Below, piece by piece: positions 1-64,000 of a stretch of DNA of 64,000 bases (positions are counted from its first letter, which is position 1; each line of letters begins with the position of its first letter). Made by a program: the position numbers and the translations under genes. The notes beneath the pieces were generated by a model. It saw nothing but the letters and a program-made list of their open reading frames with translations, searched no databases and had not been told where the DNA came from. Source of the stretch: a virus; the IMG/VR virus record IMGVR_UViG_3300021964_000014. One strand, 5' to 3'.

Positions 1-2291
1 CTAATCATACCTCCGTAATTGCCTGTAATCCCTAATTCTAAGCTTGCATAATTACTTGTTCCGCCTATTCGTAAAGCAGCTGTACCAGATGCTCCACCTG
101 CTCCTGAATCGATATTTAATTGTGTAGCTGGGGCAGTGGTTCCAATACCAACGTAGCCAGTAGCGTGCTTAATAGTTAATTCATTATTACTTGCTCCAGG
201 ATTTGTGTTTTCTCCAGGAAGAGTTCTAATATAGAAATCACCAGCTGTAACATTATTTGCGCTACCGACTAACCAACCCTTGCTATTAAATGAGTCCCAC
301 ATTCTTATCGCAGGAGCAGTAGTCCAAGATTGACCACTTCCATTTAACTCAAGTCTACCTTCTGGACTAGTAGTTCCGATTCCCACATTACCAGAAGAGT
401 TAATTGTCATATCAACAGCAGATCCTATACCGAAGTCAATTTGATTTTCACCTCTGATCCCGAAGTTGTTTGCGTTGTTATTAGGAGAAACAAATAAATG
501 GTACCCGCTTCCAATATACCCTTTTGCAGTGCTGTTATTGTTAAATCTTAAATACGGCCCATTAGCATCTGTGGAATTAAATACTGTATTTTCAGAATTA
601 TTATTTACTACTAACTTTCCATTAAGAGTAAGAGCACCGGTGAAGGTATCGCTCGTATCGCTTCTTAAGTAAGAAGATCCTTGAACACCGTCTAATAAAT
701 CAGCATCTAATCCTGAGCTTGCTCCATCGTTTCCGGCATGCCAGACTTGATTGTCATCAATATAAACCTTACCAGCAGCATCTAAATCAATTCTTAATTT
801 ATTTGCATTTGCACCAACAAACTGAATCTCATTAGGATTTGATGCCCATCGAATACCCCAAGCGTTTGCAGCTGTTCCCTCTGAAGGATAGTAATCCTCG
901 CTAATACCCCAAATGTCAGCGTCGCCATCACTACTAAGTCTAGAAAGAAAACCTCCTTGTAAAATAGGTCTATCACCTATTGATGAAGGAAAAGTTAATT
1001 GTTTTGATACAGTATCGTCGGCATCGCTTCTCACGTACTTCGAGTAAGTAGGCGGTGGATTTGCAGAACTGTAATAGTAAGAACCATGTTGTCCATCTAA
1101 CAAATCTGCATCTAATCCTGAACTTGCACCATCATTTCCTGCATGCCATACAAGACTTGTACCGTCATATATATTACCGGTTGCAATTATATCTCCTTCT
1201 ACTTTAACAACAGTACGTGTTTCCGTTCCACTTATAATAAATCCGTCATTTGAATTTCCTCCAGTTGTGGTAATGGCTCCGTCAGAATGTAAATACTGAA
1301 TTGTACCAACTTGAGAGAAATTTGAAGTTTGATCACTAAATTTTATAGTGGCTCCAACTCCATTAGTAGAAGATTTTATAAAAACTCCTGTATCATTTAT
1401 AAATTGAATATGGCCTGTTGTGCTATCATCTGCATCACTTCTTAAGAATGAAGAAGCTTGTATACCATCTACAGTATCTGCATCTAATCCTGATCCTGCT
1501 CCATCGTTACCGGCATGCCAAATCATACTACCCCCAGTAAAGTTAGCAGAAGAAGCCCAGTAGGGTTGGGTGTCTGTACCTACTCCAAAGTACCTTGTAT
1601 GTACTCCGCTAACCTCTAATGCTAATCCTACTTGATTACTAGTTGGACTAGTCCTTCTAAGTATTAACTGATCTGCAGTATTTGATTTCGCTATAACTAA
1701 TTGACCTGTGGTAGTATCATCTGCATCACTTCTCAAGTAAGAAGCTCCTTGCACACCGTCTAATAAATCTGCATCTAATCCTGAACTTGCACCATCATTT
1801 CCTGCATGCCAAATTTCATTATTTTCAATTGTAGTTGTACCACCTCGTTCGTCAAAATTAAAATTAACTGCGGCAAAATTTATATCTCCGTATGAATTAT
1901 TAGTTCTATCATATGATAAAATATAGGCCTCAGTTGAATTTGGTCCAGAAACCCCTATTTCTAATGCAGTACCAGATGCATTTGATGAATTATTATTCCA
2001 CCATCCGGTTGCTCTAATTTGTCCTAGAGCTAAAATATCTCCATTAACCGTTAAATCCCCAGATCCTAATGAAATATTTCCTGCTGTTAATGTACCTGTG
2101 AAATTACCATCCCCTAATAGGTTAAGAGACCCGGTCATATTGTGCACATCATCTGATGAATTACCAAAAGATGTACTACCACTTTCATGTAGTATAGAAG
2201 AACTTATAAACTCAGTATGAAATTCTTGAGCTGTTAGTGTTCCTGTTACTACTAATGATCCGGTTACCGCCGAGGATTGTAATTGTGCCAT
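1..2291 (-). CDS. Tail/neck fibre protein, 5' part (runs off the left edge; missing from the ORF track)
   Basis: ATG at 2291 gives MAQLQSSAVTGSLVVTGTLTAQEFHTEFISSSILHESGSTSFGNSSDDVH...; four WHAGNDGxxSGLDAD(L/T)xDG repeats and GNVGIGTTSP motifs; no stop seen before position 1. Confidence 0.9.
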   Translation of the reverse strand, partial: MAQLQSSAVTGSLVVTGTLTAQEFHTEFISSSILHESGSTSFGNSSDDVHNMTGSLNLLGDGNFTGTLTAGNISLGSGDLTVNGDILALGQIRATGWWNNNSSNASGTALEIGVSGPNSTEAYILSYDRTNNSYGDINFAAVNFNFDERGGTTTIENNEIWHAGNDGASSGLDADLLDGVQGASYLRSDADDTTTGQLVIAKSNTADQLILRRTSPTSNQVGLALEVSGVHTRYFGVGTDTQPYWASSANFTGGSMIWHAGNDGAGSGLDADTVDGIQASSFLRSDADDSTTGHIQFINDTGVFIKSSTNGVGATIKFSDQTSNFSQVGTIQYLHSDGAITTTGGNSNDGFIISGTETRTVVKVEGDIIATGNIYDGTSLVWHAGNDGASSGLDADLLDGQHGSYYYSSANPPPTYSKYVRSDADDTVSKQLTFPSSIGDRPILQGGFLSRLSSDGDADIWGISEDYYPSEGTAANAWGIRWASNPNEIQFVGANANKLRIDLDAAGKVYIDDNQVWHAGNDGASSGLDADLLDGVQGSSYLRSDTSDTFTGALTLNGKLVVNNNSENTVFNSTDANGPYLRFNNNSTAKGYIGSGYHLFVSPNNNANNFGIRGENQIDFGIGSAVDMTINSSGNVGIGTTSPEGRLELNGSGQSWTTAPAIRMWDSFNSKGWLVGSANNVTAGDFYIRTLPGENTNPGASNNELTIKHATGYVGIGTTAPATQLNIDSGAGGASGTAALRIGGTSNYASLELGITGNYGGMI
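685..1811 (-). repeat. Four copies of the fibre repeat WHAGNDG(A/S)(S/G)SGLDADxxDG
   Basis: Copies at about 703-743, 1108-1148, 1480-1521 and 1771-1811; the 1108 and 1771 copies are identical over about 40 nt (gcatctaatcctgaacttgcaccatcatttcctgcatgcca). Confidence 0.9.
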
Positions 2292-25646: not shown

Positions 25647-27218
25647 TTACACTGCTAACATGTCAGAGATGTAAATCTTACCGTAGAATTCTGGTCTAAT
25701 CATCTTCTTCGCATAACGAGTCATGATACCTTTTCTTGGAGTGAAGGTATTAGGATCGTATACTAAAGGAGTCATGATTAATGGTACATATGGAGCATAT
25801 ACAGCACCACTTTCTAGGAACTGACCACCTCTAAATCCTAATAGGATAGTGTTTTCAGTCATATAAGGGTTTTTGTATACTTTATATCTACCGTTAAGTT
25901 GTCCAACTTTTTGAACACCCATTGCAAACTCAGCTTGGTCACCGTCAGTTTGTGCAGCATATCCTGGAATAGATTCTAAGATAGTTGCAACTGCTGGAGA
26001 ACATACTAGGAAGTTAGCACCTCCTCTAAGAGTTTTTTGGTGAATTTTGTTAGATACTTTTTGGATTTTAGTTCCTAAAGTTTGGAACCATTGTCCTTGA
26101 GTATTGTAGAATCCACTTGAAGCAGTAGCCCAAGCAGAACCATTCCATACTCTATTGTTTTCAGCAGACCACTTTTCAGTTGTTCTTGCACCGCCGATCA
26201 ACATATCTAAGATCTCAAGATCAATCTCCATAGAGATATACTCACTCAATAAAGATGTTAACTCAGCCTCAGCATCAATACTGTGGTAAGCGTTAAGATC
26301 TTGAGCGAATTCTGGAGTCCATTGTGCTTTCAACTTTCTAGTTTTAGCAACAACTGCCTCAGATTTTAACTCTACATTGATTTCTGGGATGTTGATAGAT
26401 CCAGCAGGAGCGTCTTCAAAGTCTCCTCTTGAATTGTCAGCTGGTACAGCATGCCATTTGATAGCACCTGTAATTGCACCTGCAGCAGTTGCTGTTTTAG
26501 CGATTACAAATACTAAATTACCACTACCGTCAACATAAGTCAATTCAGGGTTAGAAGTAATGTCAGTTGACCCAGATAAGATTCTGAAAGCTCTTACACC
26601 GTCAACATCATATCCAGCAGGAGCTGCAGCAGATACTGTAAAGTAATCAGCAGGATCCTTGTCGTCGTCAAAGTTTACTGATGCAGATGCAGCAGATCCA
26701 GTAGCGACAGCAGATAGAGCAACGTCAGATCCAGTAGCGACAGTATATCCGAATGCACCAGCACCGTATAGACCACCAGAAGGATCAACATCTACTCCCA
26801 TTTTATTCACAACTGATACGTTTCCGTATAAGCTTGAATCGTTAGTTTTTCCGTGTCCAGCAGTACCGTATTTAAAGTCTAAATAAAATACTAGTCCAGA
26901 AGGAAGGTTCATTGGTTGTACAGAGACGAAATCTTTAGATGAGATTTGTGCGAATACCTTTCTTACTAAAGGTAGAGCAACACCAGCCCATTGTTCAGAT
27001 CCACCACCTGCAGCGCCGATTGCAGAAGTACCAGTAGATGATTGCTCAGCTACGATTTGTTTTGCTTGGTTCTCTAACATGATAGACATGTTAGCTGTGT
27101 CTTTTTCGTTTAGACCTTCAAGCAATCCAGAAGCACCCCACTTATCAGCTAACCTTTTTGCGTCTTCTTGAAGGGCTTTGTAGCCGTTCGCGCTTTCTAA
27201 TAGGTTGTTAATTTCCAT
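25647..27218 (-). CDS. gp23: Major capsid protein (T4 gp23 family)
   Basis: VSVQPMNLPSGLVFYL, AKTRKLKAQWTPEFAQDLNAYHSIDAEAEL, YAPYVPL, DPNTFTPRKGIMTRYA; propeptide probably ends at IVAE. Confidence 0.97.
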   Translation of the reverse strand: MEINNLLESANGYKALQEDAKRLADKWGASGLLEGLNEKDTANMSIMLENQAKQIVAEQSSTGTSAIGAAGGGSEQWAGVALPLVRKVFAQISSKDFVSVQPMNLPSGLVFYLDFKYGTAGHGKTNDSSLYGNVSVVNKMGVDVDPSGGLYGAGAFGYTVATGSDVALSAVATGSAASASVNFDDDKDPADYFTVSAAAPAGYDVDGVRAFRILSGSTDITSNPELTYVDGSGNLVFVIAKTATAAGAITGAIKWHAVPADNSRGDFEDAPAGSINIPEINVELKSEAVVAKTRKLKAQWTPEFAQDLNAYHSIDAEAELTSLLSEYISMEIDLEILDMLIGGARTTEKWSAENNRVWNGSAWATASSGFYNTQGQWFQTLGTKIQKVSNKIHQKTLRGGANFLVCSPAVATILESIPGYAAQTDGDQAEFAMGVQKVGQLNGRYKVYKNPYMTENTILLGFRGGQFLESGAVYAPYVPLIMTPLVYDPNTFTPRKGIMTRYAKKMIRPEFYGKIYISDMLAV

Positions 27219-55103: not shown

Positions 55104-55325
55104 TTACGCAGTTCCTCCGCCGCTACCGTAGTTTATATCATCAAAATCTAATCCATAAAATTCAGACATACTTAAACCGGCTGTGCTATCAGACCAGTTT
55201 GTAGCGTTTATATCTAATTGAAAGCCTTCACCAGCTGTCTGTGCATCTAATTGAGCAGTAGACGTATTGTTCATTTCTGTGTTTATGTCCGCAAATGAAA
55301 TTGCACCTGTTGACTGTAATGCCAT
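55104..55325 (-). CDS. Small virion protein (73 aa), fibre-tip/adaptor-like
   Basis: MALQSTGAISFADINTEM...LSMSEFYG pattern typical of proteins encoded after S74-chaperoned fibres; TAATG coupling. Confidence 0.65.
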   Translation of the reverse strand: MALQSTGAISFADINTEMNNTSTAQLDAQTAGEGFQLDINATNWSDSTAGLSMSEFYGLDFDDINYGSGGGTA

Positions 55326-58300
55326 TATTCTTTATCTTTTAATTTTTGTTCTAATATATCTACTTTCTTAGAAAGCTCTTTAATAGCTTCTACAAGGATA
55401 GGAGTAAGTTTTTCATATTTAACTCCGTAGTACCCTCCATTCATTTCTCCAACTACCTCCGGTAATACTTCTTTAACTTCTTGTGCTATAAATCCTATAT
55501 CATTTCCTTCAAAAGGATGTACCTCTTTATTACCTTCTTTCCAATCAAATCGAGTACCTCTTAGTTTTAATACCTTAGCTAGTGAACCATCTAAGTTTAT
55601 TATATTTTCTTTCAATCTTTCATCCGAAGAATGGAATGCAGTAATATTTCCTGTTGCTGTAATAGCTCCTGTTACAGAAAGTCCACTAGTAAAGTACCCA
55701 TTCTCAGCATATACTTGATTCCACTGTTTTAAGAAAGTACCGAAATTGTATGTCCCAGAAGTTTCTGGCAGTATATGATTAAACTGTGAGGTACCTCCTT
55801 TAGCTTCAAAAATTATAGAATTACCACTAGCACCTTGAGCTAATCTAGGAGCTCTAACATATTGAGTAGCATCAGAAACAATTTGGAGTCCTCCTGCTTT
55901 TAATTCTACGAAGTTAGTAGGTACACCTACGCCAAGAGATGTATCATATGATGGTGCAGTACCAAATCCAGAGGTACCTAAAGTAGTATTAACTGTGGTA
56001 TTCGTTGTAGAATTAAGAGCGTTTACTGCAATATTATACCCTGCTCGTGCTCCACTTCTAACTCTATATCTAAATTTAACATCAGTTGTTTCAGAGATAG
56101 TCATAAGAACTGTTTCAGCTCCTCCTGTATGTGCTACATTGACACCACCTTGTGCTGCTCTAGTTTTTTGCACCCAAGTATACGTTGTAATAGACGGGTT
56201 GTGAGAAAGTATTCCGTCAGAAATGTAGTTTTGGTATCCTGGTACTACAAACGTATAAACATCAGTTTCGTTGTATATAGTTTCAACGTCTAATACTTTT
56301 TCTTTCTTTATTCCGCCTTCAACTGCTACATAAATTTCAGTTTCGTTAGGTACTAGTTCTACAGATTTTATCTCTTTATTTTCATCTAGCCAGAACCCGT
56401 GATCGTCTGTTACTGTAATTGTTTTAGTTTCAGTAGTTACTTTTAATATAGTACTTGTAGTTCTGTTTCTTATTTCTTTAATAGAACCTGCGCTAATTTC
56501 ATTAATGCCATCTTGCCATTTCCACACTTTAAGTACATCACTCTTTAATATATCTTTAGCCTGTTTAGTTGAACCGTCGTATAGTTCTATTTCTGTAGTT
56601 CCTACAACAGAGGATGGACTTTGTAGACCACCACCTCCACCACCACCGGTAGTAGAGACAGAACCAGAAGCTTCCCAATAGCTATGAGAATTAACACCTG
56701 CTATACGGTATGCGCTTCCTAGTAAAGCTTCACCAACAACAGTTGTTGTTCCGTTTTTAATTGCTTGCAGGTATATATCTGCATAGTGAGCTTTTTTGTA
56801 AAAGTTAGAAGGAAATCCGTGGAGCTGACCTTCTTGGGTACCAACATAAGCCGGTGTTGTTACTGTGTTAATCTGATTTGTAGGGGCATCAACGCTAAAA
56901 GAAGGAGTTGTTATATTAATTTGAGCTTCCCCTTGAGAAGCTGCGAATACAGCGCCTTGAGTTCCATATCTGTTATTATAAACAGGACCGTAGACAGATG
57001 TAGATGTTACAGACTCCATTGCATTACCAGAAGTAATACCCGGTATACTAACAGAAACACTACCGCCTGCTGTACTTGTTAAAGTATCTAAAGGAGAAAT
57101 AATTACTTTCTTATTCCCTCCTGCAAACATTTGAATCTCAGGTATGTTAGGTTCGAATATTATTTCACTGTTATCATCTCTTAACGCATTAGTGGTAGGA
57201 TCGATTATCCAATCTCCGATCTGTCCTGAGGTAGCTGTTATTTCACCTGATATACTAGCATCAGATGCTGTCATAAATCCTTGACTATCGACTGAGAAGT
57301 TTGGAGAGGTAGCATTAGGTATGGATAGTTGACCTCCTTCAATTGTTCCACCAGTCAATGAACCTGCATTTATAGTCGCACCTTGGATAGTACTACCATT
57401 GATACCTGCAGCGGCAGTAATTAGCCCACCAAAATATGTATCACCATTGGACGCTAAAGAAAAGTTTGGAGTAGAAATAGCCCCATTGGTAAGGTCTATC
57501 GCCATACCAGCAGTAGAGAACCCAGATCCATCATCAGTTCCTGCGTGATTATTTGATAATATAGAGCCTGCTCTAATCTTATTACCTGATATGGTAGTTG
57601 AGTTGTTATTTACATCTGTTGCTGCTCCTCCTGGTTGTAGGGAAGAAGCACCATCTGCTGCTCCAGATACAACATCAGAAACGGTTGTATTAGTTGAACC
57701 TACTCTTAAACTACCTGCAAATGTACCTCCTGCTGCTTCTAAGTCTCCTTTAAATTTAGCATTACCTGCTTTGTCTATATAAAATTCTTTAGAATGTATA
57801 GCACCTGAGGAAGATATAATTAGTCTTCCTGCTGTAGATGTAAATGTTGCTGTATTCTCATCTGTTCCTGTAAATATTTTATCTGAATGAATAGTCCATC
57901 CACCAACACTACCTGCTGTTTTATCTTGAGTATTTGAGGCAGCTGATGCTGTTGCTTGTATATCACTATTTGAAACGTTATCTACATTACCTAATCCAAC
58001 ATCTGTTGCTGAAGTATTAGAGTTTAAGGTGTTATTCTCATCAAGGTCTGTGCTGCCTATGGTCACTGTTCCTTTAAATCCAGCATTACCTGCTTTATCT
58101 ACATAAAACTGTTTAGCATGTATAGCACCAGAAGAAGATATGATTAACCTTCCTGCTGTAGATGTATATGTAGCAACATTCTCATCTGTGCCGGTAAATA
58201 TTTTATCTGCATGGATTGTCCATCCGCCTACTGTACCTGCATCTTTATCAGCAGTGTTTGCTGCTGCGGATGCTGAAGCCTGTATATTAGAGTTTGAAAC

Positions 58301-61300
58301 GTTATCTACATTACCTAATCCAACATCTGTTGCTGAAGTATTAGAGTTTAGTGTATTATTTGCATCTAAGGTAGTACCGCCTATTTGCATTGTACCTGAG
58401 AATACAGCAGAACCATCTGATGCTATTCTAAAGTTTTTAGCAGATATGGCTCCGTTATCTAAATTGATCGCCATACCAGTTGTTGACATAGCTGATCCAT
58501 CATCAGTACCGGCATGATTACTAGATAATATTTTACCGGTCTGAATTGTATTACCTGATATTTTAGTAGCAGCGCCTAGCTGAGCACCAGCTGCTAATCC
58601 CCTAAAGATTAATCCTTGAGTTGAGCTACTATTGTCGTAGTGTATAGAAGCTCCCGGTCTAACATATCGGTCAGTAACGTTATTAGCTTGAGAAGAAGTC
58701 ACATAAGCAGGAGAAGTAAAATCTCCATCTTTAAATACCTCGTATCTTGCACCGGTTTCTAAAAGAGTAATCTTAACTCTGTACTGCTGGTTTTCAGAGA
58801 AATCTGTATCAGAAGTCCAGTCGTCATTTACGAGTGCGTGTATTTGGGTTCCGTTTTCTCGAACAGTTATATCATTACTTTGGAAATAAACTGTGTGATG
58901 CTGTTCAGTATGGCTATAGCTTCCAGGACTTTCTTTAAATAATCCAATCATAGTAGCTGGAGTGCTATGTCCTACTACGACATCCCATTCAAAAGAAGGT
59001 CCATCATTTCTATCAAATACTGCTTTAGTAAGGAATCCTTTATTCCATGCATCACCTCCTGAGTTCTGTAATAGTACTCCTAGTACAGGTGAGGTATAAG
59101 TTGTTATATTTGGAATATTAGAATCAAATATATTTGCATCTAACGAACCGCTAAATTGATATGTTATAGTCGGTCCAACACCTCTATTACCAATCCTTAA
59201 GTTCGCACCATCCCAAGTCAATGCATCAGAACCTGTACCTTGATTTGATAGGTAGAAGTTACCTGAGCTATCCATATAGGACTTAAAGTTAGTACCGTCA
59301 TGGTATCCTAAGTACTGAGATGTTAAGTTTAATCCGGCTGCTGCAGTGTTAGTAGCCAAAGCAAAGGCATCTCCTCCAAATGCATATGAAGTTGGATTTA
59401 CTAACGAACTTGTAGCTGCATTAGTAGTATAGGGGCTCAACATAGAGCTTGTAGTACTATTACCTACTGCATTATTATCTGTATATGTTTCTGCTGCCGA
59501 TTGGGCTGCTGATGCTTCCGCACTTGCAGTTGCTGCAGTATTGCTGATGCTAGTTTCTAGAGATCCTGTAGCAGAATCAAGATCTGCTTGTGTAGCGTAT
59601 GTAGCATTTGTAATTGTAATACTACCTTCAATAGTTAGATTAGTACCGTCCCAAACAAACTTATCCCCTAATGAGAATTTACCGCTTGAACTTACAAAGA
59701 ATGGAGTATTTGAATTATCGTAGGTACCTGTACCTATATACATACTCTGTGCAGCTAATTCTATACCTCCGATAGAACCATCTCTTGCTACTATTGTGCC
59801 ATCTACACTTAAGTCTGAGCCATCCCAAGATAATCCGTTATTACCTGAACCTGCTAAATAGAAGTCTCCAGAAGAAGACATATAAGTTTTCCAGGTATCT
59901 GTATCGTAGTATCCTAAGTTATCAGCACTCATAAATAATCCAGTACCTGAAGGAGTAGGATTAAATGCTATCTTACCACTAGCATCTACTGATCTAGTAA
60001 CAGCTGTATTCGCAGTTGCTTGAGCTGCTGCTGCACTTGCTGTTGCAAAGTTTGCGGTTGTTTGTGCTGCTGCTGCTTCGGCAGATGCTGTTGCTGCAGT
60101 ATTACTTATGCTAGTTTCTAATGAGCCTGTTGCTGTATCTAGGTTAGACTGTACTGTAGTAGCTGCATTACTTGCTGTGACTGCGGCTGCAGAGGCACTT
60201 GCTGCTGCTTGTGAAGCTTGAGTAGCTGTACCTGCTGCTGTGGTAGCATCTGACTGTGCTTGAGTAATTGAACCTGTTAAACTAGATGAGGCTTCATTAG
60301 CTGCATTAGTTGCAAAGGTCTGTAGTGATCCTGTTACTGTATTTAAATTATCTTGAGTAACAGCATTACCTCCTACAATATTTATAGTACCTGCGATAGT
60401 TAACGATGTTCCGTCCCATGCTAAGTAGTTACTAGAACTTCCTGTTAAGAAGAAGTTACCGTTATTAGCCATGTAAGTTTTCCACTCACTACCTGAGTAG
60501 TAACCTAAGTTAGTTTGGTCCATAAATAGACCTTCACCTGATAGGGTAGCTGGTTTTTGAATCTTACCTGTACTATCTGTAAAGATATCAGCTGCTAAAG
60601 AGGAAGACGTATTATTAATTAATAAAGATTGATCATAAGTAGTATCGGCAGAAGCTGTCCATGCATTACCTGCACCCCATACATATACTTTGTTTCCATC
60701 ATCATTATCAATCCAAATATCACCTTCTGTTCTGCCTGATGCTCCAGGAGCTGTTGCTTGTCTAAATATAGAATTTTTACCGTCTAATACTCCCTGTAAA
60801 CCTTCATTTACTGAAGCTTGAGACGCAGATACACTATTTAATTCTCCTGATACAGAAGCTACTGAAGAAGATATCTCAGCATTTGAAGCTGAAATTCCTG
60901 TTGCTAAAGAACCTGATAAAGAACTTGTAGCAGTATTAGTAAACGTATTAGCATTTGATTCTGCAGTATTAGCTGCGTTTTGTGCAAATGTTTCTAATGA
61001 ACCTGTAGCTGTGTTTAAGTCTGCTTGTGTGGTAGCATTACCACCTGTTATATTGATAGAACCTGCAATTGTAAGTGAGGTTCCATCCCACGCTAAATAA
61101 TTAGCATCACTTCCAGTTAAGTAGAAGTTACCATTATTAGCCATGTATGTTTTCCAACCACTGCCGGAATAGAATCCTAAATTAGTATCTCCTAAATATA
61201 ATCCAGCACTTGATGTGTTTGGTGTTCTAACTAACTTACCACTTGAGTCTGTAAATATATCTAATGCTACAGAACTTGATAAAGAAGCAGAAGTTGAATT

Positions 61301-64000
61301 AATTAATGCTGCTTGATCATATGTACCGTCAGAAGAAGCTGTAAAGCTAGAACCATTCCAGATGTACATTTTATTTTGCTCACCTGTATGAATCCAAACA
61401 TCACCTACTGTTCTACCAGAAGTAGAAGGAGAAGTTCCTTGTCTAAATATAGATGCTTTACCTGCTGCTACTGCATCTAAATCTGATAAATTAGATGCTA
61501 ATGAGCTAGAAGTACTTGCTAAACTATCTGATAGAGAAGCATTAGAAGAAGATAAACTAGTTGCTAAAGAGCCTGATAGAGTATCTACGCTACCTGTTAC
61601 ATAATCTTGAGTAGCTGCATTACCGCCTGTGATTGTTATAGCACCTTTTATTTCTAAGGTACCAGTTCCTGCATCCCAAGCTAATTTATTTCCTGCTGAC
61701 CCTGTTAAGAAAAAGTCACCAGTGTTATCCATATAAGTCTTCCAGGTACCTGATTCGTAGAATCCTAGGTTAGTAGAAGTTAAATATAAACCTGTAGCAG
61801 AAGCGGTTGGTGGTCTAACTGCTCTACCTGAGCTGTCAGTAAATATTTTTGCATCTAAAGTATTAGTTGTTGTAGCTATAGAGCCAGACAAAGCTGCGTC
61901 TGAAGCTGATATTTCTGTTGCTAATGATCCTGATAAAGAGCTGGTAGCAGCATTTAGTTCTGCTGTATTAACTCCAGTTCCTCCTGTTATGTCAACAGCT
62001 CCTTTGATATTAAGTGTTGAACCATCCCAGTATATATAATTGTTTCCAGATGTTGCAGTACCTACTCTAAACTTACCGGTACCGTCCATATAAATTCCAT
62101 CACCTGCTGTGTTTGTTATTACACTAGCACTAACTCCTGCTTTTAAAGCTCCGTTGTTAAGTGAACTTGAAATTATAAATGTTGGAGTATCTAAACTAAA
62201 TGTTTGAGTCTTTATGTTTAAATTACCGTCTGTAAAGTTATCTAAAGATATAAAGTTGTTAGCTCCTCCTACTTTCCATGCACCATCTGTATACCAGTAG
62301 TTATTGTTGTTTACATAGATACCATCATTAGTACCTTGAACATCTCTACCGATAGAAATCTTTTGACCAGTTTCTAACCCTCCTTGAACAGTTGCTACAT
62401 GAAGTATACCTGCAATAGAACCAGTTTGTGCTGTTATAGCTCCTTTGAAGTATCCATTTTCAGTATAAATACCAAAACCTGGTTCATCATCTCCGTATAA
62501 GTATGCAGAAGATAATCCTGATAGATCTCCTAATCTAGTTCTTAATTCTAAATCATAAACCCCTGATCCTGTTCTTTCTACTATATCCATATAGGGTGTA
62601 GAAATATCTCTAGGATTAGCATTCATGAGCATATAACCAGAAGTAATATCTTTTTCTGGGTTATAAACACCAGTTGAAACTAATACCTGACCTTCATTAT
62701 AAGGTTGAGCAGTTGATACTAAACCGGCTAAAAATTCTTTATCAGAATCAATCAAGTAAACAGTGTCACCATTAGTATGTGAATCTGCAACTGTGTCGTG
62801 GTAATCTCTAATTACTGTTAATACATTACCTGAAGTGGATATAGATGTGATTTTAAATCTTTCATCATCTATTTTAATAATATTTTGAACTGCTAAACTT
62901 GCAGTACTTGCTACAGTGATATCTGTTTCTATATCATCTAAGTCTTCTACTATAGTAGTAACTGAAGAAGATACAGCAGGTACACCTCCAAATGCTCTTT
63001 GAACATATATTTCACCTGCTAGTCCATCAGGGTCTATTGAACCTGTGTTGTAAGATATACTACTATCTTGTGAATATCTTTTAGAACCCGATACATACAT
63101 ATACTCAACTGAGAATCCTGTATTATCGACTGATTTAGCTTTTAATATTTCACCTGTTTCAAATCCAGAAACGTTTGCTACTGAGAATGTAACAGCTGTG
63201 TCAGCATATGAAGAAGAGCCGGCTATAATAGCTCCTGCTTCACTTCTTAAAGGTTGTATGGTTGTAGCATTCGCTACCATCAACTGACCTCCAACTACGT
63301 TAACACTCTCTTTTTCAAATACAGTAGTTTTTAAAGTACCACGTATTCTCATATTTTCAAACTCAGCAGAACCGTTTCCTAATGTATCTATTCTCCAACC
63401 TTTTACGTTGGTAGCAAAGTTAGAAGATTCTAACCTACCATCTGAATGTATTATGAGTCCTGTTTCACCTTCTGCATATGCTCCTCCAAAACCAGAAGCA
63501 GGTATAGATCTAATCTGAGAGTCAGTTACTTCCCATCCTCCGATCTTATTACCTTCCTGACCAAACATTGCAATTGTATCAGCACTACCTGTCCCAGAAC
63601 CATCATATATTTTAATACCGTATAAATCGGAAGCATCGTCTGATATTTCTCCTAATCTTATAATTTCTTTTGAACCGGTATCAAAAATATTAAGTCTTTG
63701 AGTTGTGGTATCTATATCGAAATAAGTCGTGTCTAACTTAAAAGTTTCTGTCCTAATATCAACACCAGTGGTTGTATTGAACCTAAAGTAGTTACTAGCA
63801 TTCTTAGTTAGATCTAATGTTGCTACAGTAGAGTCCATACCAAGTATAACACCGGCATCATTATTACCAAAAGTTGTTTTGGCTCCTGCTACTAAAAACG
63901 CATCATCAGTATTTCCTTCTAGTCTTACCTTATTTGTACTACCGGCTGTTATTTTTCCTTGTGCTCCTAAAAGTTCAACTTTACCGTCACCAAGTGACAT
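55325..64000 (-). CDS. Giant tail protein (at least 2891 aa; probably begins beyond the right edge) with internal repeats, a Hint domain and a C-terminal S74 chaperone
   Basis: GWRID..G.AEFENMRIRG, IGGW motifs, repeated WKTYM..GxFYLTGS..LAWDG modules; FHSSDERLKENI...IGFIAQEV...VKYEKLTPILVEAIKEL. Confidence 0.9.
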   Translation of the reverse strand: MSLGDGKVELLGAQGKITAGSTNKVRLEGNTDDAFLVAGAKTTFGNNDAGVILGMDSTVATLDLTKNASNYFRFNTTTGVDIRTETFKLDTTYFDIDTTTQRLNIFDTGSKEIIRLGEISDDASDLYGIKIYDGSGTGSADTIAMFGQEGNKIGGWEVTDSQIRSIPASGFGGAYAEGETGLIIHSDGRLESSNFATNVKGWRIDTLGNGSAEFENMRIRGTLKTTVFEKESVNVVGGQLMVANATTIQPLRSEAGAIIAGSSSYADTAVTFSVANVSGFETGEILKAKSVDNTGFSVEYMYVSGSKRYSQDSSISYNTGSIDPDGLAGEIYVQRAFGGVPAVSSSVTTIVEDLDDIETDITVASTASLAVQNIIKIDDERFKITSISTSGNVLTVIRDYHDTVADSHTNGDTVYLIDSDKEFLAGLVSTAQPYNEGQVLVSTGVYNPEKDITSGYMLMNANPRDISTPYMDIVERTGSGVYDLELRTRLGDLSGLSSAYLYGDDEPGFGIYTENGYFKGAITAQTGSIAGILHVATVQGGLETGQKISIGRDVQGTNDGIYVNNNNYWYTDGAWKVGGANNFISLDNFTDGNLNIKTQTFSLDTPTFIISSSLNNGALKAGVSASVITNTAGDGIYMDGTGKFRVGTATSGNNYIYWDGSTLNIKGAVDITGGTGVNTAELNAATSSLSGSLATEISASDAALSGSIATTTNTLDAKIFTDSSGRAVRPPTASATGLYLTSTNLGFYESGTWKTYMDNTGDFFLTGSAGNKLAWDAGTGTLEIKGAITITGGNAATQDYVTGSVDTLSGSLATSLSSSNASLSDSLASTSSSLASNLSDLDAVAAGKASIFRQGTSPSTSGRTVGDVWIHTGEQNKMYIWNGSSFTASSDGTYDQAALINSTSASLSSSVALDIFTDSSGKLVRTPNTSSAGLYLGDTNLGFYSGSGWKTYMANNGNFYLTGSDANYLAWDGTSLTIAGSINITGGNATTQADLNTATGSLETFAQNAANTAESNANTFTNTATSSLSGSLATGISASNAEISSSVASVSGELNSVSASQASVNEGLQGVLDGKNSIFRQATAPGASGRTEGDIWIDNDDGNKVYVWGAGNAWTASADTTYDQSLLINNTSSSLAADIFTDSTGKIQKPATLSGEGLFMDQTNLGYYSGSEWKTYMANNGNFFLTGSSSNYLAWDGTSLTIAGTINIVGGNAVTQDNLNTVTGSLQTFATNAANEASSSLTGSITQAQSDATTAAGTATQASQAAASASAAAVTASNAATTVQSNLDTATGSLETSISNTAATASAEAAAAQTTANFATASAAAAQATANTAVTRSVDASGKIAFNPTPSGTGLFMSADNLGYYDTDTWKTYMSSSGDFYLAGSGNNGLSWDGSDLSVDGTIVARDGSIGGIELAAQSMYIGTGTYDNSNTPFFVSSSGKFSLGDKFVWDGTNLTIEGSITITNATYATQADLDSATGSLETSISNTAATASAEASAAQSAAETYTDNNAVGNSTTSSMLSPYTTNAATSSLVNPTSYAFGGDAFALATNTAAAGLNLTSQYLGYHDGTNFKSYMDSSGNFYLSNQGTGSDALTWDGANLRIGNRGVGPTITYQFSGSLDANIFDSNIPNITTYTSPVLGVLLQNSGGDAWNKGFLTKAVFDRNDGPSFEWDVVVGHSTPATMIGLFKESPGSYSHTEQHHTVYFQSNDITVRENGTQIHALVNDDWTSDTDFSENQQYRVKITLLETGARYEVFKDGDFTSPAYVTSSQANNVTDRYVRPGASIHYDNSSSTQGLIFRGLAAGAQLGAATKISGNTIQTGKILSSNHAGTDDGSAMSTTGMAINLDNGAISAKNFRIASDGSAVFSGTMQIGGTTLDANNTLNSNTSATDVGLGNVDNVSNSNIQASASAAANTADKDAGTVGGWTIHADKIFTGTDENVATYTSTAGRLIISSSGAIHAKQFYVDKAGNAGFKGTVTIGSTDLDENNTLNSNTSATDVGLGNVDNVSNSDIQATASAASNTQDKTAGSVGGWTIHSDKIFTGTDENTATFTSTAGRLIISSSGAIHSKEFYIDKAGNAKFKGDLEAAGGTFAGSLRVGSTNTTVSDVVSGAADGASSLQPGGAATDVNNNSTTISGNKIRAGSILSNNHAGTDDGSGFSTAGMAIDLTNGAISTPNFSLASNGDTYFGGLITAAAGINGSTIQGATINAGSLTGGTIEGGQLSIPNATSPNFSVDSQGFMTASDASISGEITATSGQIGDWIIDPTTNALRDDNSEIIFEPNIPEIQMFAGGNKKVIISPLDTLTSTAGGSVSVSIPGITSGNAMESVTSTSVYGPVYNNRYGTQGAVFAASQGEAQINITTPSFSVDAPTNQINTVTTPAYVGTQEGQLHGFPSNFYKKAHYADIYLQAIKNGTTTVVGEALLGSAYRIAGVNSHSYWEASGSVSTTGGGGGGGLQSPSSVVGTTEIELYDGSTKQAKDILKSDVLKVWKWQDGINEISAGSIKEIRNRTTSTILKVTTETKTITVTDDHGFWLDENKEIKSVELVPNETEIYVAVEGGIKKEKVLDVETIYNETDVYTFVVPGYQNYISDGILSHNPSITTYTWVQKTRAAQGGVNVAHTGGAETVLMTISETTDVKFRYRVRSGARAGYNIAVNALNSTTNTTVNTTLGTSGFGTAPSYDTSLGVGVPTNFVELKAGGLQIVSDATQYVRAPRLAQGASGNSIIFEAKGGTSQFNHILPETSGTYNFGTFLKQWNQVYAENGYFTSGLSVTGAITATGNITAFHSSDERLKENIINLDGSLAKVLKLRGTRFDWKEGNKEVHPFEGNDIGFIAQEVKEVLPEVVGEMNGGYYGVKYEKLTPILVEAIKELSKKVDILEQKLKDKE
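56198..56611 (-). other. Hint (intein-like) domain, 138 aa, within the giant tail protein
   Basis: Block A SVVGTTEIELYDG, block B VTDDH, block F/G VYTFVVPGYQNYISDGILSHN; +1 residue is Pro; no homing endonuclease. Confidence 0.85.
57745..58370 (-). repeat. Tandem duplication of a 108 aa (324 nt) unit in the giant tail protein
   Basis: NNTLNSNTSATDVGLGNVDNVSNS...VGGWTIH.DKIFTGTDEN.AT.TSTAGRLIISSSGAIH twice; identical run of more than 45 nt at about 57982 and 58306. Confidence 0.92.

Follow-up and report, generated by a model that had tools for sequence, protein, structure and literature searches.

An apparently active Hint domain inside a giant phage tail fibre most likely cuts itself out instead of splicing cleanly

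Introduction

What could a Hint domain do in the middle of a giant phage tail fibre, when the residue that follows it is proline and not one of the nucleophiles used for protein splicing? The known hosts of inteins and BIL domains are replication enzymes and bacterial surface or toxin proteins. The question is raised by a 64,000-nucleotide stretch of DNA from an uncultured marine phage (IMG/VR record IMGVR_UViG_3300021964_000014, hereafter the window), in which terminase, portal, and major head protein are also encoded and whose major capsid protein shares 68% identity with its counterpart in Flavobacterium phage immuto. A reading of the DNA letters had proposed a non-canonical Hint domain within a tail protein that also contains an S74 self-cleaving chaperone (the original prediction). 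No paper describing a Hint domain in a phage fibre was found in full-text searches of the literature, from which two candidate papers concern terminase and RNR inteins; nor was any description found of a Hint as a maturation device of phage receptor-binding fibres, or of Hint and S74 devices in one chain.

Architecture of the tail fibre

The giant tail-fibre gene is located on the minus strand (55325..64000), based on the ORF list and its translation. The last 2,891 codons and the stop lie within the window, and the reading frame is open at the window edge, which places the 5' end outside and gives a gene of more than 2,891 codons. Homologues of the fibre are 2,800-3,800 aa long, one of which is named 'tail fiber domain-containing protein' at NCBI. 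The Hint had been assigned the right coordinates, and the feature was found to lie on the minus strand, the plus-strand frame being full of stops.

All features of the C-terminal region are encoded on the same minus strand. The N-terminal half of a jelly-roll-like beta-sandwich (56663..57040, residues 2321-2446), whose last strand reads 'SYWEAS', is followed by a flexible Gly-rich linker, 'GSVSTTGGGGGGGLQSPS' (56612..56662, residues 2447-2463), which forms the N-extein side of the junction, has Ser as its -1 residue, and is modelled with pLDDT <50. The length of this linker varies from 4 to 28 aa across relatives, and in one group of relatives it contains an entire additional Cys1-Hint. Next comes the mini-intein/BIL-like Hint domain itself, recognised from both sequence and fold (138 aa, 56198..56611, residues 2464-2601), and then the C-terminal half of the same sandwich (55844..56197, residues 2602-2719), which begins with the +1 Pro and the strand 'TYTWVQ' and terminates in a conserved 'NFVELKAGGLQIVSD'. 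A short stalk (55628..55843, residues 2720-2791), modelled as a low-confidence extended segment, connects the sandwich to the S74 cleavage site; it is conserved across homologues, and many fibres contain its repeat motifs.

The C-terminal intramolecular chaperone (Peptidase_S74, 55328..55627) begins at the Ser of 'SSDERLKENI' and matches Pfam PF13884 with 61.5 bits (cut-off 22), with the Ser-Asp..Lys cleavage motif present. When a 691-aa C-terminal query was used in tblastn, many fibres of GenBank phages were matched, solely over the S74 part. The final Asn of the Hint is separated from the fibre stop by 290 codons, as originally counted, and the Hint site lies about 190 residues upstream of the mature fibre end. 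Thus, the same fibre contains both of the autoprocessing devices that had been proposed, with the activity of the Hint predicted from conservation. Neither the sandwich flanks nor the 2,200 residues upstream had a match in Pfam or PHROGs.

Sequence and fold of the Hint domain

The translation of the Hint, which starts with 'SVVGTTEIEL', ends with 'GILSHN', and is flanked by 'STTGGGGGGGLQSPS' before and 'PSITTYTWVQ' after, confirmed each of the predicted hallmarks, including Ser1 (codon 56609-56611), the T-x-x-H motif, which is T-D-D-H in block B (Thr B:7, 56408-56410; His B:10, 56399-56401), the terminal His-Asn (His G:6, 56201-56203; Asn G:7, 56198-56200), and Pro at +1 (56195-56197), all on the minus strand. 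The suspected replacement of Asp at F:4 is also real: Thr occupies this position (56252-56254, minus strand), with 'VYTF' aligned to 'VYDL' of the archaeal CDC21 and KlbA inteins. The Pfam Intein_splicing profile (PF14890) was matched with 33.1 bits and an E-value of 5.8e-8, slightly below its gathering cut-off of 35.8, and TIGR01445 (19.6 bits, cut-off 24.5) and TIGR01443 (17.5 bits, cut-off 15.6) matched the two ends of the domain. No match to PT-HINT (PF07591) at E up to 1 or to the Hint_2 profile could be detected for this Hint, which is matched by the intein profile alone and is the only Hint within the 64-kb window.

An AlphaFold model of fibre residues 2300-2800 (501 aa) has high pLDDT throughout the Hint domain. 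By using VIA-align, the modelled Hint was found to superpose on the NpuDnaB intein (4o1r) over 136/142 residues with a Z of 20.5 and an rmsd of 1.7 Å, and model residues 165 and 302 fall on the first and last intein residues. Z-scores against Tetrahymena BIL2, Hedgehog, and the C. thermocellum BIL domain were 19.6, 18.7, and 18.5, respectively, and the Foldseek matches had E-values of 1e-9 to 1e-7 with a probability of 1.00. All 30 chains at Z >=9 to the model are inteins or BIL, Hedgehog, or Vint domains, and nothing else. The modelled domain is thus a member of the HINT superfamily (Hedgehog/intein fold), and it is, as had been anticipated, a genuine Hint domain of a non-canonical kind, with Pro at +1 and a residue other than Asp at F:4.

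The two flanks form a single beta-sandwich, and the Hint is nested within one of its hairpin loops, at the surface and close to the fibre tip. In the model, the strands containing SYWEA and TYTWVQ (140-146 and 308-315) border the insertion, which agrees with the original placement of the domain and with the Hint-less alleles. The N-terminal half is mostly modelled with pLDDT 76-96 and matches its sub-profile (Nf) at 5e-34; the C-terminal half has a pLDDT of about 90, matches its sub-profile (Cf) at 1e-39, and contains an invariant Trp310 (numbering of the 501-aa region). Matches to CBM, jelly-roll, and phage receptor-binding proteins cover both flanks (model 12..397, Z 6-8.3). These structural matches are generic (Z 5-8 to CBMs, to the jelly roll of IBDV VP2, and to the heads of phage receptor-binding proteins), and only the fold class of the sandwich is named here.

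Conserved catalytic residues and a free +1 position

Conservation was analysed in 52 distinct relatives with identity down to approximately 30%, and in a second set of 37 representatives of 50%-identity clusters. Ser1, Val2, Ser or Thr at 68, His71, Thr or Ser at 120, His137, and Asn138 are invariant in all 52 relatives, and the cluster representatives keep the His-Asn in every case and Ser1 in 33 of 37. Position F:4 is always Thr or Ser, never Asp or Cys, and no conserved His is present at F:13 in the 52 relatives. Mean pairwise identity is 44% for the Hint versus 31% and 29% for the flanks. The catalytic set of the Hint is under purifying selection.

The +1 residue behaves differently. Nine forms were observed among the 52 relatives (Pro in 29, Thr in 8, Ile in 5, Val in 4, Tyr in 2, and Asp, Asn, Ala, and Ser in one each), which means that it is non-nucleophilic in 43 of them and Thr or Ser in the other 9. 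It has changed at least 14 times on the tree, with Pro, Ser, and Ile occurring among near-identical sequences, and 12 different residues were found among the cluster representatives. On the midpoint-rooted tree, Pro is the residue of the deepest branches, and the three places where Thr occurs are derived. Because +1 varies freely while Ser1, TxxH, and His-Asn do not, canonical splicing is excluded as the conserved function.

Three other catalytic arrangements were also considered. A class 3 intein, with its WCT motif (Trp B:12, Cys F:4, and Thr G:5), is ruled out by the invariant Ser1 and the absence of Cys at F:4; B:12 is Phe, and a Trp is located at B:13. The Ser at +2 ('HNPS') is not the missing nucleophile, as +2 is not conserved either. 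A catalytic N-terminal Pro made by cleavage is ruled out by the presence of Pro in only about half of the relatives.

At 50% identity, the Hint family falls into at least 25 clusters, and 65 representatives were detected at E < 1e-30. A tblastn search of the Hint alone against 50,697 GenBank phage records yielded no match at E up to 1e-3, and no cultured phage with this Hint was found among these records, including Flavobacterium phage immuto, the closest one by capsid.

Alleles without the Hint

The search for Hint-less alleles that had been suggested was successful. In P0134, P0136, P0153, and P0192, the two sandwich halves are contiguous and a loop of 4-10 residues occupies the Hint site (for example 'YYEAV-STGFS-LQWQY'), so that the host protein exists without the insert at the same site, as is expected for class 1 inteins. 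In the model of P0153, strands 126-131 and 136-141 meet at the insertion point, and the S74-equivalent part resembles 3gw6 and 4uw8 at Z 8.3-8.4. A tree of the flanks placed P0134 and P0192 among Hint-bearing sequences (support 97/99), implying at least 2 gain or loss events, with 4 on the ML tree. The Hint is kept in about 25 of the approximately 34 cluster representatives that have these flanks. As Hint-less and Hint-bearing alleles are interspersed, the sandwich does not need the Hint, which may be a tolerated, self-removing insert or parasite rather than a purpose-built, useful device. The purposes put forward in the original prediction, programmed release of the tip or covalent capture of a partner or host molecule, are putative.

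Proposed self-excision

The most likely reading is that the Hint, apparently active, cuts itself out instead of splicing cleanly. More specifically, this intein-derived domain probably works like a type-A BIL domain and excises itself from the hairpin loop of the lectin-like sandwich. If the order and the products of the reaction are read from the conserved residues, the fibre would fold first, and an N-O acyl shift at Ser1, aided by Thr B:7 and His B:10, would then turn the peptide bond between Ser(-1) and Ser1 into an ester. The terminal Asn would cyclise with the aid of the penultimate His, and the Asn-Pro bond would be broken. Since no Cys, Ser, or Thr follows the Asn, a branched intermediate would not form, and the 15-kDa Hint would leave by two uncoupled cleavages. 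In the final step, the S74 chaperone would remove itself from the C-terminus.

Several published observations bear on this scheme. Asp at F:4 delays Asn cyclisation until the branch has been formed, and type-A BILs carry out step 1 and step 3, after which the amine attacks and cleavage products predominate (Mills, Johnson and Perler 2014, PMC4031507). The same scheme of step 1 and step 3 has been stated for BILs that lack a +1 nucleophile (PMC7664689), and Asn-Pro is among the hydrolysis-prone peptide motifs (PMC10056213, Table 3).

Two outcomes of excision could be envisaged. The sandwich halves might be held together non-covalently as a nicked domain within the trimer, or the freed alpha-amine might attack the ester and re-join them, which is the ligation route proposed for type-A BILs. 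With an oxy-ester and Pro after it, the nicked sandwich is the likelier of the two. Oxy-esters are poor substrates for aminolysis, which makes the re-joined outcome uncertain. Engineered inteins are poorly cleaved before a +1 Pro, and C-terminal cleavage of the present protein might accordingly be slow or absent. A further point against excision is the possible fragility of a fibre whose receptor-binding domain is nicked.

Alternative explanations

A selfish or neutral remnant is a rather unlikely but serious alternative, which concerns the purpose of the Hint rather than its chemistry and overlaps the best explanation. A decayed mini-intein would persist by removing itself, leaving the loop nicked or lengthened with no gain for the phage. 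The patchy presence of the Hint, the nesting of P0134 and P0192 among Hint-bearing sequences, and the folding of the sandwich without a Hint in the P0153 model all agree with this explanation, and fixed catalytic residues combined with a relaxed +1 are the pattern expected if removal alone matters. However, the loop accepts insertions and deletions of 4 to 28 residues, and a second Hint as well, and loss of the Hint by deletion should therefore be easy, yet most representatives keep it. In addition, conservation is higher in the Hint than in its host domain, the same Hint subtype is found 258-340 residues from the C-terminus in fibres with other flanks and non-S74 ends, and Hint modules recur in the fibre operon of related phages.

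It is improbable that the domain acts in ester transfer of the Hedgehog or BUBL kind, in which the Ser1 ester or the +1 amine would form a covalent link between the fibre and another molecule. Candidate partners are another virion protein, such as a neighbouring small Gly-tailed protein, and a nucleophile on the host surface. Among the top structural matches is Tetrahymena BIL2, which needs no ATP to couple its N-flank to lysines (PMC8616854). The Hint is preceded by a Gly-rich N-extein both in this fibre and in many of its relatives, and a Cys1-Hint is located on the neighbouring small protein in related phages. Nevertheless, BIL2 resembles the domain in structure no more closely than ordinary inteins do, an oxy-ester is less reactive than a thioester, no acceptor was identified, no sterol-recognition-like or adaptor region is present, and the invariant His-Asn would be superfluous for pure transfer.

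The neighbouring small protein is encoded by a 73-aa ORF (55104..55325, minus strand), whose ATG overlaps the fibre stop (TAATG) and whose product ends with 'YGSGGGTA'. It is a Hint-less allele of an approximately 240-aa protein (N-domain, Gly linker, and Cys1-Hint) found at the same position in related phages, and its end coincides with the predicted cutting point of the Cys1-Hint in the longer relatives. At related loci, the neighbouring Cys1-Hints score 27.3 and 29.0 bits against PF07591 (cut-off 27.7). In the present phage, the 73-aa protein without a Hint is followed by a Pol-beta-like nucleotidyltransferase gene. The Pol-beta-like gene is anticorrelated with the Hint on the small neighbour; about two independent clades underlie this pattern, which is not counted as evidence.

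A related and similarly doubtful possibility is that the Hints of the fibre operon act as protein ligases without ATP and assemble a fibre tip with covalent branches, with Hint and nucleotidyltransferase as interchangeable coupling routes. Inside the receptor-binding sandwich, the fibre Hint would release an alpha-amine (Pro+1), a Gly-rich C-terminus activated as an ester, or both, and the small Gly-tailed protein of related phages would carry a Cys1-Hint thioester. The Pol-beta-like enzyme might instead activate the C-terminus of the small protein by adenylylation. By either route the small protein would become coupled to the fibre, much as in the ubiquitin-like conjugation of BUBL/BIL2.

A canonical class 1 intein, which would splice the halves via a +1 nucleophile and leave an ordinary peptide bond, is very improbable. 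The features of such inteins that are found here are a first residue that is Cys or Ser, the block B Thr-x-x-His, and a C-terminal His-Asn. Moreover, blocks A, B, F, and G are present, true mini-inteins are the best sequence matches, the insertion topology and the intein-less alleles are typical of inteins, and the 9 relatives with Thr or Ser at +1 would be able to splice canonically. A class 1 intein also has Cys, Ser, or Thr at +1 (PMC4031507), but here this residue is Pro; it switches freely in the family while the catalytic residues are fixed, the places where Thr appears are derived, the Asp at F:4 is absent, and there is no homing endonuclease. Equally far-fetched is a non-catalytic role as a structural or binding knob of the mature fibre, whose trimer could accommodate three 15-kDa domains projecting from its loops, as a passive domain would not be expected to keep Ser1, His B:10, and the terminal His-Asn entirely unchanged in >50 diverged sequences.

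Implications of the proposed self-excision

If self-excision by the Hint takes place as proposed, its pairing with S74 would represent two independent self-cleavage reactions in one chain. The natural variation of the family serves as ready mutagenesis, with Ser1, TxxH, and His-Asn fixed and +1 free, and it makes a long-standing question testable: whether the flanks are re-joined without a side-chain nucleophile, from an oxy-ester, or whether the domain is deliberately left nicked. If nicked, the fibre tip would be held by beta-sheet complementation alone, as in SEA or GAIN domains, which would matter for host engagement and release by the giant fibres of marine Bacteroidota phages. If re-joined, a small Cys-free domain with a promiscuous +1 would be of interest to protein engineers.

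Comparison with known systems

The C-terminus of this fibre is a bona fide member of the S74 chaperones of endosialidase and T5 pb1 fibres (3gw6, 4uw8) and shares their nature as a self-removing maturation device, whereas their fold and chemistry are unrelated to the Hint. Hedgehog-type Hog domains do not fit, as the His-Asn is invariant here and half a sandwich, a stalk, and S74 follow the Hint.

The C-terminal Gly-Hint fibre caps (PHROG 38766, 'virion structural protein') share the fibre context, the Gly-rich linker, the His-Asn, and the absence of a +1 nucleophile. They are terminal and have Cys1, whereas the present Hint is internal, has Ser1, and splits a folded domain, with half of the sandwich, the stalk, and S74 still to follow. 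Cys1 members of the same Hint subfamily (P0158 and P0182; 1e-29 to 1e-31 against the subfamily profile) have just 17-41 residues after the Hint, and thus only cleavage or transfer would be possible there.

Class 1 mini-inteins (NpuDnaB 4o1r, Pho/Pab CDC21-1, and gp41-1) provide the best structural and sequence matches, and the shared features include blocks A/B/F/G, a size of 138 aa, and insertion into a host domain that also exists without the insert. The Hint differs from them by Pro at +1 (unconstrained in the family), Thr or Ser instead of Asp at F:4, a residue other than His at F:13, and a hypervariable structural host instead of a conserved replication enzyme, with no trace of an endonuclease.

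Type-A BIL domains were reportedly described by Amitai in 2003 and Dassa in 2004. The C. thermocellum example (PDB 2lwy) has the same Hint fold (Z 18.5), and this class and the present Hint have in common the N-terminal nucleophile, TxxH, the C-terminal His-Asn, and the lack of a nucleophile in the C' flank. Both are also located in a variable stretch of a surface protein that is not itself conserved, and an exchangeable C-terminal module follows them. The present Hint differs by having Ser1 instead of Cys1, by matching only the intein profile (neither PT-HINT nor Hint_2), by its location in a phage fibre rather than a bacterial protein, where it is nested in a folded beta-sandwich, and by its 290-residue C-extein with an S74 protease of its own. 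The chemistry expected to be shared with type-A BILs would be step 1 and step 3, with cleavage dominant and amine ligation possible (PMC4031507).

Phage and fibre gene

The window derives from a phage and codes for a terminase, a portal and a major head protein. The major capsid protein (25647-27218, minus strand) is 68% identical to that of the Flavobacterium phage vB_FspM_immuto (Immutovirus) and 53% identical to that of a Microcystis phage. The source is an uncultured immuto-like myophage, whose fibre is recorded in the protein database on a contig of about 176 kb; to judge from the capsid match to the Flavobacterium phage, it probably infected a marine bacterium of the Bacteroidota. Based on the ORF listing and translation, the tail-fibre ORF (55325..64000, minus strand) comprises 2,891 residues and is open at the window edge. 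Its C-terminus carries a Peptidase_S74 chaperone (minus strand, beginning 'SDERLKENI'; 61.5 bits, cut-off 22), as had been proposed for the chain that contains the Hint domain. In translation, a module of about 110-170 residues with the pattern '...IFTDS.G...P....GL.....NLG.Y....WKTYM...G.F.L.G.....L.WDG..L.I.G.I...GGNA.TQ' occurs at least five times in the shaft (fibre residues ~570-1830; window ~58500-62300, minus strand), and Ser/Ala-rich coiled segments separate the copies.

Sequence and fold of the Hint domain

The Hint domain (56198-56611, minus strand; fibre residues 2464-2601) reads 'SVVGTTEIEL ... NYISDGILSHN' in translation, stands between STTGGGGGGGLQSPS on its N-terminal side and 'PSITTYTWVQ' on its C-terminal side, and ends 290 codons before the fibre stop. 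Read on the plus strand, the interval first proposed (56198-56650) contains stops throughout; the coding strand is the minus strand. The residues named in the original prediction (Ser1, T-D-D-H, the terminal His-Asn and Pro at +1, the position just after the domain) were all found in the translation, and Thr at the block F Asp position was borne out by an alignment in which 'VYTF' pairs with 'VYDL' of the CDC21 and KlbA inteins.

Sequence profiles gave borderline results (Intein_splicing, 33.1 bits against 35.8; TIGR01445 and TIGR01443 match the two ends of the domain), and the matches of a PDB sequence search were all mini-inteins (E 0.005-0.2). A structure model of fibre residues 2300-2800, with a 30-sequence alignment as input, was of high confidence over model residues 30-148, 165-302 and 303-400. 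Model residues 162-302 superpose on the NpuDnaB intein (Z 20.5, rmsd 1.7 Å, 136/142 residues), followed by Tetrahymena BIL2 (Z 19.6), Hedgehog (18.7) and the C. thermocellum BIL (18.5), and Foldseek concurred. A Hint fold is therefore predicted, and since model residues 165 and 302 coincide with the first and last intein residues, its borders are those proposed from the sequence. Where the sequence profiles stay borderline, the predicted structure settles the identity of the domain.

Insertion into a lectin-like sandwich

Below the Hint matches, the structural search returned jelly-roll or CBM-like sandwiches (IBDV VP2, Z 8.3, then CBM27, CBM29, MAM and a phage baseplate protein). These alignments extend over model residues ~12-397 and thereby cross the Hint, so that in the model the two flanks appear to form one domain. 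As an independent test, a profile of the 500-residue region covering both flanks and the Hint was searched against 1.84 billion cluster representatives, which yielded 65 proteins at E < 1e-30. By splitting the profile in three, the N-flank, Hint and C-flank were all found in ~25 representatives; in four homologues (P0134, P0136, P0153 and P0192) the flanks are directly joined without a Hint, and five further representatives have the C-flank but lack the Hint. The original proposal had called for a search for such Hint-less alleles. In these, a loop of ~4-10 residues replaces the linker, the Hint and 'PSIT' (such as 'YIAE-NSFDR-LFWVD' and 'YYEAV-STGFS-LQWQY'). In the model of P0153 the sandwich is unbroken and confidently predicted, and strands 126-131 and 136-141 form a hairpin exactly at the Hint site; the C-terminus of P0153 is S74-like (Z 8.4 to 3gw6). 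Given the spanning sandwich matches and these hairpin alleles, the Hint is an insert in a hairpin loop of a lectin-like sandwich near the fibre tip, as originally suggested.

Hints elsewhere in the fibre operon and in other proteins

Tandem Hints occur in one clade (L023, L025, L027, L028, L030, L031 and L035-L037). In L023 (3481-3927), a Cys1, PT-HINT-like domain (29 bits, cut-off 27.7) lies in the Gly linker and ends with 'THN'. Seven residues ('VKLESFV') separate the upstream Cys1 domain from the Ser1-Hint in this clade, and a heptapeptide would be released if both domains cut at both ends.

Directly after the fibre gene, 17 related IMG/VR loci carry a gene for a ~240-aa protein that matches PHROG 38766 ('virion structural protein'). 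In this protein, a small N-domain ('MALQTSGAISL...') and a Gly linker precede a Cys1-Hint, which has His-Asn as its last residues and another 8-26 residues behind it. In the window, this place is taken by a 73-aa ORF (P0248; 55104-55325, minus strand), whose ATG overlaps the fibre stop (TAATG, translationally coupled) and which ends with 'YGSGGGTA'. P0248 is the Hint-less allele of the ~240-aa protein. Its end lies just past the Gly run, about where the Hint of its relatives would cut, which offers comparative evidence that such cap-type Hints may remove themselves by N-terminal cleavage. The next ORF, a putative Pol-beta-like protein of 186 aa (P0101; 54524-55084, minus strand), had no match in Pfam and PHROG searches. 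Of the six small ORFs without a Hint, four (those in the window, L002, L003 and L050) are directly followed by a homologue of P0101, as against none of the 17 that bear one; because the pattern comes from only about two clades that are independent, this apparent anticorrelation is taken as a lead, not as evidence.

Eight poly-Hint proteins (P0138, P0140, P0151, P0154, P0157, P0167, P0176 and P0209) contain 2-4 complete Cys1...His-Asn Hints arranged head to tail, with nothing but 'KG', 'KGG' or 'KGGG' between them.

Useful device or tolerated insert

On a flank-only tree, Hint-less alleles lie among Hint-bearing ones, with four changes on the maximum-likelihood tree, at least two of them forced by well-supported branches; P0134 and P0192 cluster with four Hint-bearing sequences at 97/99. 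The sandwich can do without the Hint, and repeated gains or losses of the Hint have taken place with no homing endonuclease. Such interspersion, and the independence of the sandwich, would suit a parasite that is merely endured, a reading that concerns purpose and is compatible with self-excision chemistry. We consider it unlikely: the loop accepts indels, so loss should be easy, yet the Hint is kept in most lineages and Hints recur in the fibre operon. Moreover, the same subtype lies 258-340 residues from the C-terminus in fibres whose flanks are unrelated and whose ends are not S74 (P0129-P0133 and P0141). In the fibre-like proteins P0129, P0130, P0131, P0133 and P0141 the distance is 258-272 residues, and the Ser1-Hint (E 1e-41 to 1e-50) again stands behind a Gly run. 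By analogy with PT-HINT in polymorphic toxins, the Hint may delimit a tip module that can be exchanged.

Conservation and proposed chemistry

The Hint was at the same place in 37/37 long homologues first found. Across 52 distinct Hint sequences from the long homologues and 58 IMG/VR loci, Ser1, Val2, Ala18, Val67, [ST]68 (B:7), His71 (B:10), Phe73, Val118, [TS]120 (F:4), Asn128, Tyr129, His137 and Asn138 are invariant. At +1, 29 sequences have P, 8 have T, 5 have I, 4 have V and 2 have Y, and D, N, A and S occur once each; this residue changed at least 14 times on the maximum-likelihood tree of the region, whose deepest branches carry Pro, and P, S and I occur even among near-identical sequences. 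Among 37 representatives clustered at 50% identity, Ser is first in 33 and His-Asn last in all, with 12 different +1 residues. Mean pairwise identity is higher in the Hint (44%) than in the flanks (31% and 29%), the Hint thus being better conserved than its host domain, and the preceding linker varies from 4 to 28 residues. The invariant catalytic set and free +1 position point to selection on the machinery for N-O acyl shift and Asn cyclisation, and not on a +1 side-chain nucleophile. Canonical splicing as the conserved function is ruled out by the absence of selection for such a nucleophile.

This pattern fits type-A BIL domains, which perform steps 1 and 3 without transesterification, with cleavage products dominating and some ligation by attack of the freed amine on the (thio)ester (Mills, Johnson and Perler, PMC4031507; PMC7664689). 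In Pho RadA, the F:4 Asp is thought to hold back Asn cyclisation until the branch exists (PMC4031507). The lack of Asp at F:4 in the fibre Hint fits with no branch being possible. Self-excision, which we regard as rather probable from these conserved residues, would combine an ester formed at Ser1 by N-O acyl shift and N-terminal cleavage with an uncoupled Asn cyclisation that cuts the Asn-Pro bond at the C-terminal end. Asn-Pro is listed as a motif prone to hydrolysis (PMC10056213). The outcome would be a nicked sandwich whose halves are kept together by the sheet and the trimer; this seems more likely than re-ligation, because that would require a secondary amine, that of Pro, to attack an oxy-ester intermediate. 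Engineered inteins cut poorly before Pro, which counts against Asn-Pro cleavage here.

Comparison with known systems

By fold, the fibre Hint belongs to the HINT superfamily; mini-inteins are closest to it by sequence, and type-A BIL domains would be closest by mechanism. It does not reach the PT-HINT profile, and it differs from class 1 inteins at the +1 residue and from class 3 inteins in lacking WCT. The Cys1 cap-type proteins P0158 and P0182 match the Ser1-Hint subfamily profile at 1e-29 to 1e-31, and the cap-type and internal Ser1 groups are therefore related. A literature search for Hint domains in phage fibres found no paper, and none of the GenBank phages searched has this domain. What is new is that the Hint is internal and splits a domain, that its nucleophile is Ser1, that evolutionary evidence shows the +1 residue to be irrelevant, and that it coexists with S74.
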